A stretch of DNA of 64,000 nucleotides from Escherichia coli (GCF_001677475.2 NZ_CP015229.1), one strand, 5' to 3'; counted from the stretch's first letter, positions 24,904 through 30,233 are shown. Notes: generated from the letters alone by a model not told the origin. Translations and numbers: made by a program.

Positions 24904-24944
24904 AACCAGAAATTGAGTGAGTTTGCCCCATCCATGCCCCACGC
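24904..24944. repeat. 41-bp direct repeat, left copy (candidate att core; integrase 3'-end remnant)
   Basis: aaccagaaattgagtgagtttgccccatccatgccccacgc is identical to 30165..30205. Confidence 0.85.
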
Positions 24945-25032
24945 GGTGAGATCGGATGTAATTAACAACAGGTTACAAAACCTACACCTGCATGCTCATC
25001 ACATGAGCATACATTTTTCATAATCGACAAAG
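24945..25032 (-). pseudogene. remnant of a fliE 3' end (encodes ...VMSMQV-stop) adjacent to the integrase-end remnant
   Basis: Reverse complement of acacctgcatgctcat reads M-S-M-Q-V-stop (recalled K-12 FliE C-terminus); imperfect copy of the int/fliE junction at 30206..30275. Confidence 0.6.
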
Positions 25033-25050
25033 TGAATCGCCACGGATAAT

Positions 25051-25863
25051 CTAGACACTTCCGAGCCGTTGATAATACTGGTTTTCATATTCTGTCGGTG
25101 ACATCTGATCGCTGGAACCATGCCGACGCTTACTGTTATAAAACATTTCGATGTAATCAAAAATATCGCTGCGGGCTTCTTCCCGCGTTCCGTAGATCTT
25201 TTTCTTTATCCGTTCGCGTTTCAACAACTGGAAAAAGCTTTCTGCAACCGCATTATCATGGCAGTTACCGCGACGGCTCATGCTGCCCTCCAGGCCGTGT
25301 GATTTCAGGAACGACTGCCACTCATGGCTTGTGTACTGACTGCCCTGATCCGAATGAACCAGCACCTGTTTTTGGGGATTACGGCGCCATACAGCCATCA
25401 GCAGTGCGTTCAGGACAATGTCCTTTGTCATCCGGGATTGCATGGACCAGCCGATAATTTTGCGTGAGAACAGATCAACAACCACGGCAAGATACAGCCA
25501 GCCTTCGTGGGTCCTGATGTAGGTTATGTCCGTTACCCAACGCTTATCCGGAGCATCCGGATTGAACTGTCGCTGGAGCCTGTTGGGCGACACGATACTG
25601 GCCTCGCCTTTACGTGCCCGCGGGCTCCGGTATCCGACCTGAGCCTTTATCCCGACACGTTTCATCAGTCGCCAGACTCTGTTCACTCCGCACTGTTGCC
25701 CGCTGTCCCGCAGATCCAGATGGATTTTGCGATAACCATAGACGCATCCCGATTCCAGCCAGAACTGTTTAATCTGCCCTGTCAGCCTCAGGTCTGCCTG
25801 ATGGCGTTGTGAATGCGGCTGCTGAAGCCAGGCGTAAAAACCACTGGGATGAACATCCAGCAC
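25051..25863 (-). CDS. IS3-family transposase OrfB (DDE catalytic domain; expressed as OrfAB fusion)
   Basis: ORF with DDE integrase-core motifs (KRWVTDITYIRT, LVHSDQGSQYTS, CHDNAVAESFF). Confidence 0.85.
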   Translation of the reverse strand: MLDVHPSGFYAWLQQPHSQRHQADLRLTGQIKQFWLESGCVYGYRKIHLDLRDSGQQCGVNRVWRLMKRVGIKAQVGYRSPRARKGEASIVSPNRLQRQFNPDAPDKRWVTDITYIRTHEGWLYLAVVVDLFSRKIIGWSMQSRMTKDIVLNALLMAVWRRNPQKQVLVHSDQGSQYTSHEWQSFLKSHGLEGSMSRRGNCHDNAVAESFFQLLKRERIKKKIYGTREEARSDIFDYIEMFYNSKRRHGSSDQMSPTEYENQYYQRLGSV

Positions 25864-25919
25864 CCGACAGAGCAGGCGAACAGGCCAGCAACAGGTGTTG
25901 TCACGGATAAAGGCGTACC

Positions 25920-26204
25920 TCAGTCGGACAGCTTTGCGAAGTACGCCGCGGCTTTTTTTAATATGTCCCGTTCGTCGGTAACCCGCTTCAGCTCTTTCTG
26001 GAGACGGCGGATCTCGGCCTGAGCATCTGACTGTTCTTTATTAGCGGAAGAATCCGGACCGTACTTCTTTATCCAGGCGTAAAGGCTGTGGGTGGTGATA
26101 TCGAGACGTGTTGCAACGCTGGCAACAGAATAACCGCGATCAACAACCTGTTTGACTGCTTCAATTTTAAACTCTTCGGGATAACGCTTACCGCTCATGG
26201 GCAC
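25920..26204 (-). CDS. IS3-family transposase OrfA (HTH)
   Basis: 94 aa ORF with HTH and leucine-zipper-like C-terminus ending at the frameshift site. Confidence 0.85.
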   Translation of the reverse strand: MPMSGKRYPEEFKIEAVKQVVDRGYSVASVATRLDITTHSLYAWIKKYGPDSSANKEQSDAQAEIRRLQKELKRVTDERDILKKAAAYFAKLSD

Positions 26205-26427
26205 CTCTCTTTAAGCCATCTTAAATGACTCTGAGGTGTCTGTTAAACCCGTGGCGATTCAAAGATCGTCCAAGAGCGCACCAAATAACAGATGGTTATA
26301 GTCGTCGAAAACATCAGTCGCCTAAGTTCACCTTAGAACTAGTGCTGTTTTGTGTCCCACCCATGCCCCACTGCCCCTTCTTTTCCTTCCTGCCCTATAC
26401 TTTCAGTCTGACTGACTGGAGGCTTCT

Positions 26428-28015: not shown

Positions 28016-28228
28016 TTAAGCAATCATTCCGAAATGCTTCATCGCTTGCTCGATGAAAGTAACGTAATTAACAGGGCATTCATACACTTTTGAGTCAGGA
28101 GAGATACGGTTCGGCGCCTTCTTCATCTTGAACCCATGCATGTGCTTAACATGAGCGATATGGCATGTCTTAACACTGACACCATGGTTAGCTTTGACGT
28201 ATTCCTGGATCTGCTTATAGGTAGCCAT
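28016..28228 (-). CDS. small Cys/His-rich hypothetical protein (70 aa), possible partner of the HEPN-motif gene
   Basis: Start MATYKQIQEYVK preceded by AAGGAG RBS; same strand and immediately upstream of 27015..27812. Confidence 0.5.
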   Translation of the reverse strand: MATYKQIQEYVKANHGVSVKTCHIAHVKHMHGFKMKKAPNRISPDSKVYECPVNYVTFIEQAMKHFGMIA

Positions 28229-28342
28229 GCACCTCTCCTTTTTCATCACGACTCAATATACATGACAGGAAGCGCAGTGATAGCCAGTTATGTTCTAACC
28301 TGAGATTTAACCCGCGATATACTTTCTGCAACGGAGGATCCC

Positions 28343-28591
28343 ATGGCAGAAAGAAATGATAAGCCGCCTAAACCGGTTGCTGTCAGTCGGAGAATAATCA
28401 AAGGGCTTAGTCAATGCGAGCGGTGCAAGAAAACAAGGCTGGAGTGCCGCCGCATAGCGATGTCAGACGGAACAAGAATCGTCGCCTGTTTTGATTGTAT
28501 GACCGCCAAAAGCATAACTGGTAAAAAGCAAAAAAAGCTCAAAGTGTTTGAAATTTTAACCGCCTTTGAATCATCTCGACGAAAGCACTAA
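28343..28591 (+). CDS. C4 zinc-finger protein (CxxC...CxxC), putative island regulator
   Basis: 82 aa ORF with GGAGGA RBS; CERCKK...CFDC motif. Confidence 0.55.
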   Translation: MAERNDKPPKPVAVSRRIIKGLSQCERCKKTRLECRRIAMSDGTRIVACFDCMTAKSITGKKQKKLKVFEILTAFESSRRKH

Positions 28592-28640
28592 CCATCTATA
28601 GCCGCCCACTGAGGCGGTTTCTTTTTGCCTGGAGAAAACC

Positions 28641-28886
28641 ATGAGCGACATTATCAACCTGGTACCGAATAAATGGGTGACTGAGCAGAACCTGATCGCA
28701 GTCACCGGATTAAGGCCAGGAACCATTGAACGAGCCCGCCGCGAGTCATGGTTCGCCGGCCGCGAATATATGCATGTTTCACCCGATGGAAACCCAAAGC
28801 CAAACAGTGAATGCATGTACAACACAGAAGCCATTAATCACTGGATCGAACAGCAAGCATCAAAACAGCCGGGTGCTCATTCATGA
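28641..28886 (+). CDS. excisionase-like DNA-binding protein
   Basis: 81 aa ORF immediately upstream of the integrase, with RBS; the Xis-like assignment is by position and size only. Confidence 0.5.
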   Translation: MSDIINLVPNKWVTEQNLIAVTGLRPGTIERARRESWFAGREYMHVSPDGNPKPNSECMYNTEAINHWIEQQASKQPGAHS

Positions 28887-28931
28887 TGAACGGGTTATGC
28901 TTATCAGGCTCTTGGACGTCAGGAGGGGATA

Positions 28932-30233
28932 ATGGCTAAATCAGCATACCCAACAGGCGTTGAGAACCACGGAGGAACTCTCCGCATATGGTTCATCTAT
29001 AAAGGCAGCCGGGTTCGTGAAAGTCTCGGCGTGCCGGATACACCAAAAAACAGAAAGATCGCTGGCGAGCTACGCGCGTCGGTGTGCTTTTCGATTAAGA
29101 CCGGTAACTTCAATTATGCGGCCCAGTTTCCGGACTCACCTAATCTGAAAAGATTTGGCGTGGAGAGTAAGGAAATAACCGTGCTGGAACTAGCGAACAA
29201 GTGGCTTGAACTGAAGCGTATGGAGATCAGCACCAACGCGATGTCACGCTATGCATCTATAGCGCGCAACATGGTGCCCAGGATTGGTGGGGACAGGCTG
29301 GTATCTGCGGTAACGCAGGAAGATCTGCTGTTTATCAGGAAGGAATTGCTGACCGGTTATCACACGCTGAAAGTCGGGCAGAAAACGCCGGTTAAGGGCC
29401 GCTCAGTCAGAACGGTCAACAACTACATGAAGACCATGGGCGGGATGTTTAAGTTTGCCGCTGATAGCGGTTATGTACGGGTGAATCCGTTCACCGGGAT
29501 CGCCATGCTTAAGCGGTCACGATGCGAGTCTGACCCGCTGACGCGCGATGAGTTTGTCAGGTTGATTAACGCCTGCGCCCACCAGCAACTGAAAAACATG
29601 TGGTCTCTTGCCGTCTACACCGGCGTGCGCCACGGAGAACTTGTGTCGCTGGCCTGGGAAGATATCGACATGAAAGCGGGTACGATGATGATCCGCCGGA
29701 ACCACACGTTAACGAAGGAATTCACCCTTCCGAAAACAGAGGCCGGGACTGACCGTATCATCAACCTCATTCAGCCAGCGATCGACGTGCTGAAGAGCCA
29801 GGCCGAATTAACACGCCTGGGTAAGCAGTATCAGGTTGAGGTGAAACTGCGCGAGTATGGCCGAACCGATGTGCATCCGTGCACGTTCGTGTTCAACCCG
29901 CAGATCGCTTCGCGTAACAGCCGTGCCGGGCATCATTACGCAGTGGGGTCGATCAACCAGTCATGGGAGGCAGCAATGCGGCGCGCCGGGATTCGCTATC
30001 GCAGAGCATACCAGTCCCGACACACGTATGCATGCTGGTCGTTGGCTGCCGGTGCCAACCCGAACTTCATCGCGAAGCAAATGGGCCACACCGACGCGCA
30101 AATGGTTTACCGGGTGTACGGATCCTGGATGGCTGAAAATAACCAGGACCAGGTACTCATCCTCAACCAGAAATTGAGTGAGTTTGCCCCATCCATGCCC
30201 CACGCCGTGGGAACGGATGGTTATTATTTATAA
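28932..30233 (+). CDS. site-specific tyrosine recombinase (phage-type integrase), intact
   Basis: 433 aa ORF with AGGAGG RBS; C-terminal catalytic region (RHTYACW..., GHTDAQMVYRVYG). Confidence 0.9.
   Translation: MAKSAYPTGVENHGGTLRIWFIYKGSRVRESLGVPDTPKNRKIAGELRASVCFSIKTGNFNYAAQFPDSPNLKRFGVESKEITVLELANKWLELKRMEISTNAMSRYASIARNMVPRIGGDRLVSAVTQEDLLFIRKELLTGYHTLKVGQKTPVKGRSVRTVNNYMKTMGGMFKFAADSGYVRVNPFTGIAMLKRSRCESDPLTRDEFVRLINACAHQQLKNMWSLAVYTGVRHGELVSLAWEDIDMKAGTMMIRRNHTLTKEFTLPKTEAGTDRIINLIQPAIDVLKSQAELTRLGKQYQVEVKLREYGRTDVHPCTFVFNPQIASRNSRAGHHYAVGSINQSWEAAMRRAGIRYRRAYQSRHTYACWSLAAGANPNFIAKQMGHTDAQMVYRVYGSWMAENNQDQVLILNQKLSEFAPSMPHAVGTDGYYL
30165..30205. repeat. 41-bp direct repeat, right copy (within integrase 3' end)
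   Basis: Identical to 24904..24944. Confidence 0.85.

Follow-up and report, generated by a model that had tools for sequence, protein, structure and literature searches.

The module described here lies between an LRR gene and the flagellar gene fliE in a 64,000-nt stretch of Escherichia coli DNA (GCF_001677475.2, NZ_CP015229.1; the whole stretch is referred to as the window, and coordinates are counted from its first letter), and is very probably the internally deleted remnant of a Cobrasixvirus-like lambdoid temperate prophage that integrated at the end of fliE and was later hit by an insertion sequence (IS). Judged from its sequence, it is a lambdoid prophage by descent, having lost some 40 kb, and not the dedicated small integrative island with cargo that was proposed in an earlier sequence-only reading of the locus. 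That reading had set the limits of the module at 24904-30233 and had considered a perfect 41-bp direct repeat as its attL/attR recombination site. The repeat is present as described, with 24904-24944 identical to 30165-30205, but alignment places the inserted DNA at 25003-30274 (5,272 bp, made up of 4,040 bp of remnant, 1,229 bp of IS and a 3-bp duplication); the 41-bp repeat does not mark the ends of the insert, and the crossover maps instead to a CATCAC hexamer at the end of fliE.

The junctions were placed by aligning the regions around the two repeats with each other and with their E. coli counterpart. In this alignment the left copy of the repeat proves orthologous to an integrase 3′ fragment lying directly against fliE in E. 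coli, and the left side tracks E. coli as far as ...GCATGCTCATCAC before departing from it (ATGAGCATAC...); the right side reads ...GCATGCCCATCAC and then passes into fliE (TTCCTGATACG...). The attL core, AACCTACACCTGCATGCTCATCAC (24979-25002, with CATCAC at 24997-25002), is the displaced original fliE 3′ end and is of the host type, and attL matches the empty site through CATCAC before changing to the phage P′ arm. The attR core, AACCTAAACTTGCATGCCCATCAC (30251-30274, with CATCAC at 30269-30274), is of the phage type and now provides the last codons and stop of the target gene, fliE (30254-30568, minus strand, as delimited from the list of open reading frames (ORFs) and from comparison with the empty site). 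The 24-bp core is imperfect, matching at 21/24 positions, and since all three variants are host-type in attL and all three are phage-type in attR, strand exchange is placed rightward of the final mismatch, within CATCAC; these final 6 bp are the only part of the core to which the exchange can be assigned. As a consequence of integration, the C-terminus of FliE, formerly ..VMSMQV, reads ..VMGMQV and has a phage-derived end. In the lineage typified by contig L009, the attR core has T, not C, at position 30268, and this base brings back the host-type Ser codon (AGC vs GGC on the fliE strand). Neither a transfer RNA nor an Rfam or other non-coding RNA family was found at the attachment (att) region, and such a gene was accordingly rejected as the target.

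The precise empty site, a comparison that the sequence-only reading had suggested, was found on contig L014, which encodes an identical LRR protein and in which the integrase fragment is followed by the spacer, AACCTACACCTGCATGCTCATCAC and TTCCTGATACG, such that the junction reads int′-remnant..GCATGCTCATCAC|TTCCTGATACG. The flanks of the two are indistinguishable over 14 kb, with 0/7,503 differences to the left (17500-25002) and 0/6,629 to the right (30275-36903). An uninterrupted integrase fragment next to fliE is the usual condition of the species, being present in 5,296 of 5,426 complete E. coli genomes, and a K-12-like strain has a frameshifted LRR pseudogene, the integrase remnant and fliE in this order, much as the sequence-only reading had stated. 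In the window this older, intG-type fragment occupies 24818-24958 (plus strand) and encodes the last ∼47 residues of an integrase (Int), its translation, VYRVYGSWMAENFQNQVSILNQKLSEFAPSMPHAV, matching the C-terminus of Int; by alignment it is host-side DNA outside the new insert. The idea of a tandem re-integration at an older integrase remnant, offered previously as an alternative to the island, is thus upheld.

These comparisons also bear on the proposal that the 41-bp repeats are the crossover sites, attL and attR, of a small integrative island. The window holds exactly 2 copies of the 41-mer, AACCAGAAATTGAGTGAGTTTGCCCCATCCATGCCCCACGC, with no further copies when 3 mismatches are allowed and a chance expectation of 0, and such perfect, non-random repeats flanking an integrase-bearing segment are what the proposal calls for. 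However, empty sites contain a single 41-mer, which is followed by host-type spacer and core, and homologous integrase coding sequence is found on both sides of the 41-mer. Indeed, the 41-mer is enclosed in a 141-nt direct repeat (24818-24958 vs 30079-30219, 79% identity), beyond which imperfect similarity runs on to the displaced fliE 3′ end at 24979-25002, a feature that had been recognised in the sequence-only reading. Moreover, the stretch between the 41-mer and the core is host-type in attL and phage-type in attR, as is expected only if exchange took place at the core, and continuity with the attP of Enterobacter phage vB_EclS_CobraSix crosses at CATCAC. Taken together, the two junctions, the attP of the phage and the empty site put the crossover ∼70-110 bp downstream of the 41-mer, and exchange within the 41-bp repeats is considered highly improbable.

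The reading of the module as a prophage remnant is carried by its recombination genes and by the reconstruction of its att sites. The integrase gene (28932-30233, plus strand) is intact and encodes a 433-residue tyrosine recombinase with a PF12167 arm-binding N-domain and a PF00589 catalytic domain (phrog_1, 3.1e-78), in which R233, K268, R363, H386 and Y393/Y396 are invariant among five relatives. The protein shares 95.8% identity with Int of CobraSix, 86% with that of an Escherichia phage and ∼69% with the IntR-type enzymes of Shiga toxin phages. Immediately upstream lies a gene for an 81-residue excisionase (Xis; 28641-28886, plus strand; phrog_539, 1.9e-37; PF06806), which is 61-66% identical to its counterparts in CobraSix and in the E. 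coli prophages at fliE. The CobraSix attP is ..GCATGCCCATCAC|ATGAGCATACATTTTTCATAATCGACAAAGATCGTCC.., the genome downstream of int reading ...GCATGCCCATCAC ATGAGCATACATTTTTCATAATCGACAAAGATCGTCCAAGAGCGC..., and its left half corresponds to the attR of the window and its right half to the attL, where the match resumes past the IS. An attP rebuilt from the junctions of the window is ∼97% identical to that of CobraSix between roughly −260 and +130, counted from the crossover, and, conversely, the CobraSix attP and the empty attB of L014 jointly rebuild attL and attR. The module therefore has an Int with arm-binding and catalytic domains, an adjacent xis and reconstructable att sites, as expected of an integrated prophage. 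Structural, lysis, replication and immunity genes were not found among the ∼4 kb that are left, relatives having ∼45 kb between the same ends, and with these gene sets lost the module is a remnant and not a virion-forming prophage.

The sequence of events that accounts for the present arrangement begins with entry of the phage by Int-catalysed attP x attB recombination at the closing codons of fliE, which make up the imperfect core of 24 bp; strand exchange fell in the terminal CATCAC. The original fliE end was thereby moved to the far junction, and fliE received a phage-derived end in its place. The host arm of attB already held a 3′ fragment left by an older relative of the integrase gene, of the intG type, and the presence of this fragment in the attB arm explains why the new junctions share integrase-gene homology, including the 41-bp block.

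In several respects the module resembles systems of the lambda Int/Xis type, having a separate arm-binding domain in Int, an adjacent xis, an attP directly downstream of int, a P arm that enters the int 3′ end, repeated motifs flanking a short core, and regeneration of the end of the target gene. It differs from them in its imperfect core of 24 bp and in a candidate arm motif, TG(C/T)CCCA, that is unlike that of lambda. CobraSix is the closest phage, with 88% DNA identity in xis, int and the P arm and 81% in the tail of the methylase gene; it is, however, a complete phage of 47.8 kb in which umuDC-like genes stand beside the P′ arm in place of a SRAP gene, and which has neither the HEPN gene nor the 77- and 82-residue ORFs described below. 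With regard to the K-12 cryptic remnants, the K-12-type integrase fragment next to fliE (the intG pseudogene) has its orthologue in the left copy of the repeat, and the decay product is of the same kind, the int end having been retained and the interior lost. Unlike those remnants, the module has intact int and xis, and it is rare. Cryptic prophage remnants that contain an IS are routine in enterobacterial chromosomes, and the finding in itself changes little.

Full-length relatives occupy the same site. Complete prophages with a related Int (86% and 78% DNA identity) adjoin fliE in E. coli genomes. The far junction of one of them, in strain 30EVA1, is built like that of the window: the old integrase fragment with its 41-mer precedes a host-type core and the P′ arm, and next come a SRAP gene of full length and genes for O-antigen modification and for the tail. 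When species-representative genomes were scanned for exact matches, the P′ arm was also found beside a displaced fliE end in Citrobacter sp. FP75, in two Enterobacter species and in an Enterobacter metagenome-assembled genome. The joint occurrence of P′ arm and fliE end in several genera shows that this phage family attaches at the last codons of fliE, the site being used by Cobrasixvirus-like phages in Escherichia, Citrobacter, Enterobacter and Pantoea. No paper on CobraSix or on fliE as a phage attachment site was found in the literature searched. In the 30EVA1 prophage (L036, 8688-11450), a gtrA / GT2 glycosyltransferase (annotated yfdH) / glucosyltransferase cluster, which we take to be an O-antigen glucosylation cassette, lies just inside the SRAP gene. 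Since umuDC is found in CobraSix and SRAP with the glycosyltransferase cluster in 30EVA1, the cargo at the int-distal edge varies.

The loss of the interior is recorded in a fusion gene. The sequence-only reading listed an IS3-family element, a truncated SRAP gene, a HEPN-motif gene, small ORFs, an excisionase-like gene and an integrase gene between the repeats, and all of these are present, but the truncated SRAP gene is in reality a SRAP-methylase fusion. This ORF of 196 codons (SRAP′::dam′; 26428-27018, plus strand) consists of SRAP codons 1-∼118 joined at ∼26779-26783 to the last ∼53 codons of a methylase gene. Its product matches NCBIfam PRK09951 (the YedK family) over residues 1-128 and phage_N6A_met over residues 119-160; in the DNA, 26780-26941 matches the 3′ end of CobraSix gp41, an N6-adenine methyltransferase gene, with 81% identity, and the SRAP homology stops at 26784. 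The fusion is in-frame, with 2-5 bp of microhomology at the junction. Intact prophages carry a full-length SRAP gene at the position of the fusion ORF, and since in related prophages SRAP stands at the int-distal edge and the methylase gene in the early-left region, a single deletion, of ∼40 kb as judged from these relatives, removed the late, lysis, replication, immunity and recombination genes. This illegitimate deletion, at the 2-5 bp of microhomology, ran from SRAP codon ∼118 through to the last 160 nt of the methylase gene and left attL, SRAP′::dam′, the HEPN gene, the two small ORFs, xis, int and attR. The fused SRAP gene is probably non-functional, since only codons 1-∼118 survive, joined to a methylase tail. 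In its position as the first gene inside the int-distal edge it resembles the SRAP genes of other prophages (e.g. Gifsy-2 STM1053), from which it differs in its truncation and fusion.

The fusion is also informative with regard to the notion that the module is a phage satellite of the PICI or P4 type. The small size of the module, its int and xis genes, an att site held in common with a helper-like phage family and a defence-type cargo gene would all befit a satellite. Against this, searches of NCBIfam, PHROGs and PADLOC assigned none of the ORFs to a primase/replicase, packaging-redirection or capsid-remodelling family, every conserved segment is collinear with full-length prophages, and the in-frame SRAP′::dam′ fusion is a deletion scar. 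A satellite origin is accordingly scarcely credible, and the origin of the module by deletion from a lambdoid prophage is preferred.

The IS landed last, 30 bp from the core. It measures 1,229 bp (25033-26261, minus strand), has the ends TGAATCGCC...GGCGATTCA, and is bordered by an AAG duplication (25030-25032 and 26262-26264). Its two transposase ORFs (orfA, 25920-26204, and orfB, 25051-25863), TG...CA ends, 38-nt imperfect terminal inverted repeats and 3-bp duplication are those of an IS3-family element, and copies with 97-98% identity are annotated in E. coli as 'IS3 family transposase' (RefSeq). Five contigs (L007, L008, L009, L011 and L013) carry the remnant free of the IS, with a single AAG and 99.95-100% identity over the other 4,040 bp, those of L007 and L008 being 100% identical on both sides of the IS site. 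These IS-free alleles with their single AAG indicate that the IS entered the P′ arm afterwards, by simple transposition. The first 30 bp of this arm (25003-25032), which are identical to the CobraSix attP to the right of the core, are thereby severed from the remainder (26265-26383), whose identity to the attP of CobraSix and to attL in four other lysogens is 87-95%.

Within these arms lie short repeated motifs that may explain the conservation of the 41-mer. The right copy (30165-30205, plus strand) constitutes the int codons for NQKLSEFAPSMPHA, at the Int C-terminus. CobraSix has an identical 41-mer, and so has an E. coli prophage although its int as a whole shares only 78% identity. That the 41-mer is perfect despite 78% identity in int points to constraint on the DNA itself. 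Within the 41-mer TGCCCCA occurs twice with a spacing of 11 bp, at positions −90 and −79 relative to the crossover (24924-24930 and 24935-24941 in the left copy, on the plus strand; 30185-30191 and 30196-30202 in the right copy), and a second pair, TG(C/T)CCCA, occupies +118/+129 in the P′ arm (TGTCCCA at 26353-26359 and TGCCCCA at 26364-26370 in the window). Both pairs keep these positions in all of the attP, attL and attR sequences examined. Exact TGCCCCA occurs 6 times in the 64-kb window when both strands are counted, 5 of these being within the arms. In a Pantoea prophage at fliE, the Int of which is 49% identical, a different tandem pair (GTGCT, 10 bp apart) occupies the same place. It is well established that the P arm of lambda runs into the int 3′ end. 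By analogy, the TGCCCCA pairs are probably arm-type Int-binding sites of the P and P′ arms, and the 41-mer is probably part of the att region by virtue of candidate P-arm Int-binding sites, and not as the place of crossover. We infer that the 41-mer stays perfect owing to its two tandem candidate P-arm sites, which would be paired with those of the P′ arm. TG(C/T)CCCA is thus put forward as a candidate arm-site motif, of which no prior description was found in the literature searched. Since the E. coli attB carries the P-arm motifs of an older prophage, it would in effect be an old attR, and the usual 'empty' site of E. coli would itself already be a former prophage junction. In the strain of the window the IS parts the core from the P′ motifs by 1.2 kb, and, by analogy with lambda attL, should cripple excision by disabling attL.

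Four points weigh against the reading of the module as an IS-struck, deleted prophage at fliE. The binding of Int to TGCCCCA and the excision of the element are predicted from sequence; the T at position 30268 in the L009-type lineage blurs the exact position of the crossover; the size of the deletion, ∼40 kb, is derived from relatives; and the remnant was found in none of the complete E. coli genomes (0/5,426), so that comparison rests on draft and metagenome contigs.

An identical integrase was found on 23 contigs examined, from drafts, metagenomes and SRA assemblies. Of the contigs encoding the exact LRR protein of the window, 17 break off in the IS and one does so in the 41-mer, and 5 show the empty site. 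The remnant is nearly invariant between lineages, with 0-2 differences in 4,040 bp, and the flanks differ by 0.2-1.7%; the rate in the right flank predicts 9-12 differences in the element (Poisson P of ∼1e-4 to 5e-4). Being far less diverged than its flanks, the remnant has evidently moved between lineages after the deletion, a movement that is explicable either by site-specific excision and integration or by homologous recombination through short flanks. The identity of the flanks in L014, together with the diverged flanks elsewhere, indicates a recent gain, loss or transfer of the remnant. Polarising gain and loss by means of two single-nucleotide differences in the flank was attempted and dropped, as the outgroup states are ambiguous.

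The remnant may still be excision-proficient, and a more far-reaching possibility is that these 4 kb (attP, int, xis and the HEPN gene) constitute a minimal active element that excises, inserts at fliE and spreads from one E. coli lineage to another by means of transduction or another vehicle; in function it would be the small island of the sequence-only reading. It would be consistent with this that int and xis are intact and that both att arms are complete in the IS-free alleles, and the deficit of differences in the element, the resumption of flank differences in the L009 lineage as close to the cores as 335 bp (left side) and 189 bp (right side), and the empty site of L014 within identical flanks all fit as well. 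However, homologous recombination fits the same data, a donor like L008 differing at only two flank positions, and the empty strain may simply be ancestral. Furthermore, no circular form or junction and no second site were found, all 15 contigs with the fusion ORF being linked to fliE where the context is visible, genes for transfer, replication and packaging are absent, and attL is split by the IS in the strain of the window. An active element is therefore regarded as possible but doubtful. Contigs of 4,048 bp in Logan (SRA) assemblies were considered as circles and rejected, since they both start and end in the 41-mer and are repeat-bounded unitigs, as assembly breaks at a repeat would produce. 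On contig L012 (1-5574), foreign DNA of 42% G+C content with alpha-2-macroglobulin-like, FKBP and GH116 genes joins the SRAP fragment at window position ∼26506; a genuinely different left flank was rejected here, this contig being most likely a metagenome assembly chimera.

The next question concerns the older occupant of the site. YedK is the model bacterial SRAP/HMCES protein, and chromosomal yedK (22113-22781 in the left flank) is 78% identical in DNA to the SRAP fragment of the phage, and 87% in protein over 119 residues, with the same orientation. Prophages in Klebsiella, Salmonella and E. coli have a gene for a YedK-like protein of 82-86% identity as the first one within their edge, in the Salmonella case next to an LRR-NEL effector gene, and a YedK-like SRAP is also found in Gifsy-2 and in phage PHB10. 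A search of the literature on intG/yedN, and on yedK with prophages, yielded nothing directly relevant except a note of a Gifsy-2 YedK homologue in a Salmonella prophage remnant (PMC8049487). In Citrobacter sp. FP75, yedF adjoins the displaced fliE end, and yedK, yedL, the LRR gene and the integrase fragment are all missing. In a sequence type 131 strain (L031, 566-4290), the interval between yedF and fliE contains a yedK pseudogene, a helix-turn-helix fragment, an IS200, ybcM-ybcL-emrE and the integrase fragment; ybcM, ybcL and emrE are known from the DLP12 prophage of K-12. It is plausible that the block from yedK to the intG fragment (22113-24958) is an older remnant of the same phage family. 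A P′ arm or fliE-end relic of the older phage was sought between yedF and yedK and rejected, only ∼35-55 bp of homology being present upstream of the SRAP start.

A wider proposal, which is advanced tentatively and held to be somewhat short of an even chance, is that the fliE 3′ end is a serial landing pad for phages of a single family that decay time and again to 'SRAP ... int' stubs, the yedK-intG′ block that nearly all E. coli possess (with yedL and the LRR/EspR gene, or emrE-ybcLM, in between) being a fossil of this process, and the module a newer stub that is still Int/Xis-competent and moves the HEPN gene from lineage to lineage. If true, the yedK and EspR effector genes would have come as phage cargo and the present attB would be an old attR equipped with P-arm Int-binding sites. 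Equally, if E. coli yedK is a domesticated prophage gene, this would matter for the reading of the physiological role of YedK.

The DNA between the methylase tail and xis (26942-28615, with the HEPN gene and the 77- and 82-residue ORFs) has no DNA match in CobraSix or in E. coli prophages. The HEPN-domain gene is an ORF of 272 codons on the minus strand (27015-27833; likely start at 27812, giving 265 residues), with a G+C content of 32-38%. Its product matches the PADLOC defence-associated HEPN model (3.8e-8) and, weakly, Pfam RiboL-PSP-HEPN, with no match in NCBIfam or PHROGs. The Rx4-6H motif is present within a four-helix HEPN fold, in agreement with membership of the group, and R160-x4-H165 is invariant among eight homologues. 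The family is tiny, with 54 representatives at E<=0.001 among 1.84 billion proteins. The homologues occupy the same slot, convergent with the early-left operon and by the methylase gene or near xis/int, one of them being in a Pantoea prophage at fliE and another in a Citrobacter prophage integrated elsewhere. The invariant Rx4H and helical HEPN-like fold are shared with HEPN toxins and abortive infection proteins (HEPN/MNT, the AbiA HEPN domain, RiboL-PSP-HEPN); it differs from these in being a single 265-residue protein with an extra N-terminal beta-hairpin/helix part, and with neither an MNT partner nor a conserved neighbour. Family and cargo position suggest a stand-alone RNase, expressed in the lysogen for exclusion or abortive infection, which may restrict other phages by RNA cleavage. 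A rare HEPN family in the cargo slot of a lambdoid prophage offers a cheap candidate for anti-phage testing.

The two small ORFs lie divergently between the HEPN gene and xis. The first (28016-28249, minus strand; 77 residues, or 70 in other records) belongs to phage family phrog_27283, and was rejected as an antitoxin or partner of the HEPN protein since it is not conserved beside the HEPN homologues. The second (28343-28591, plus strand; 82 residues) has a zinc-ribbon-like CxxC...CxxC arrangement, showed no family match in PADLOC, NCBIfam or PHROGs, and is likewise not a conserved neighbour of HEPN homologues.

Flank identities of 88-93% had suggested an Escherichia other than E. coli as the source of the window. 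This was rejected, since the fliF-fliM region is 98.3% identical to E. coli and the low values were traced to the variable LRR gene and the integrase remnant. In addition to yedK, the left flank contains yedE, yedF and a GNAT gene (yedL). The LRR gene (23513-24631, minus strand; 372 codons, DUF5503) is intact here and is akin to the type III secretion system effector genes espR3 and espR4 (EspR3/EspR4) of enterohaemorrhagic E. coli, with ∼91-93% DNA identity. Its alleles diverge strongly between lineages, the gene holding most of the 89 left-flank differences in L009.

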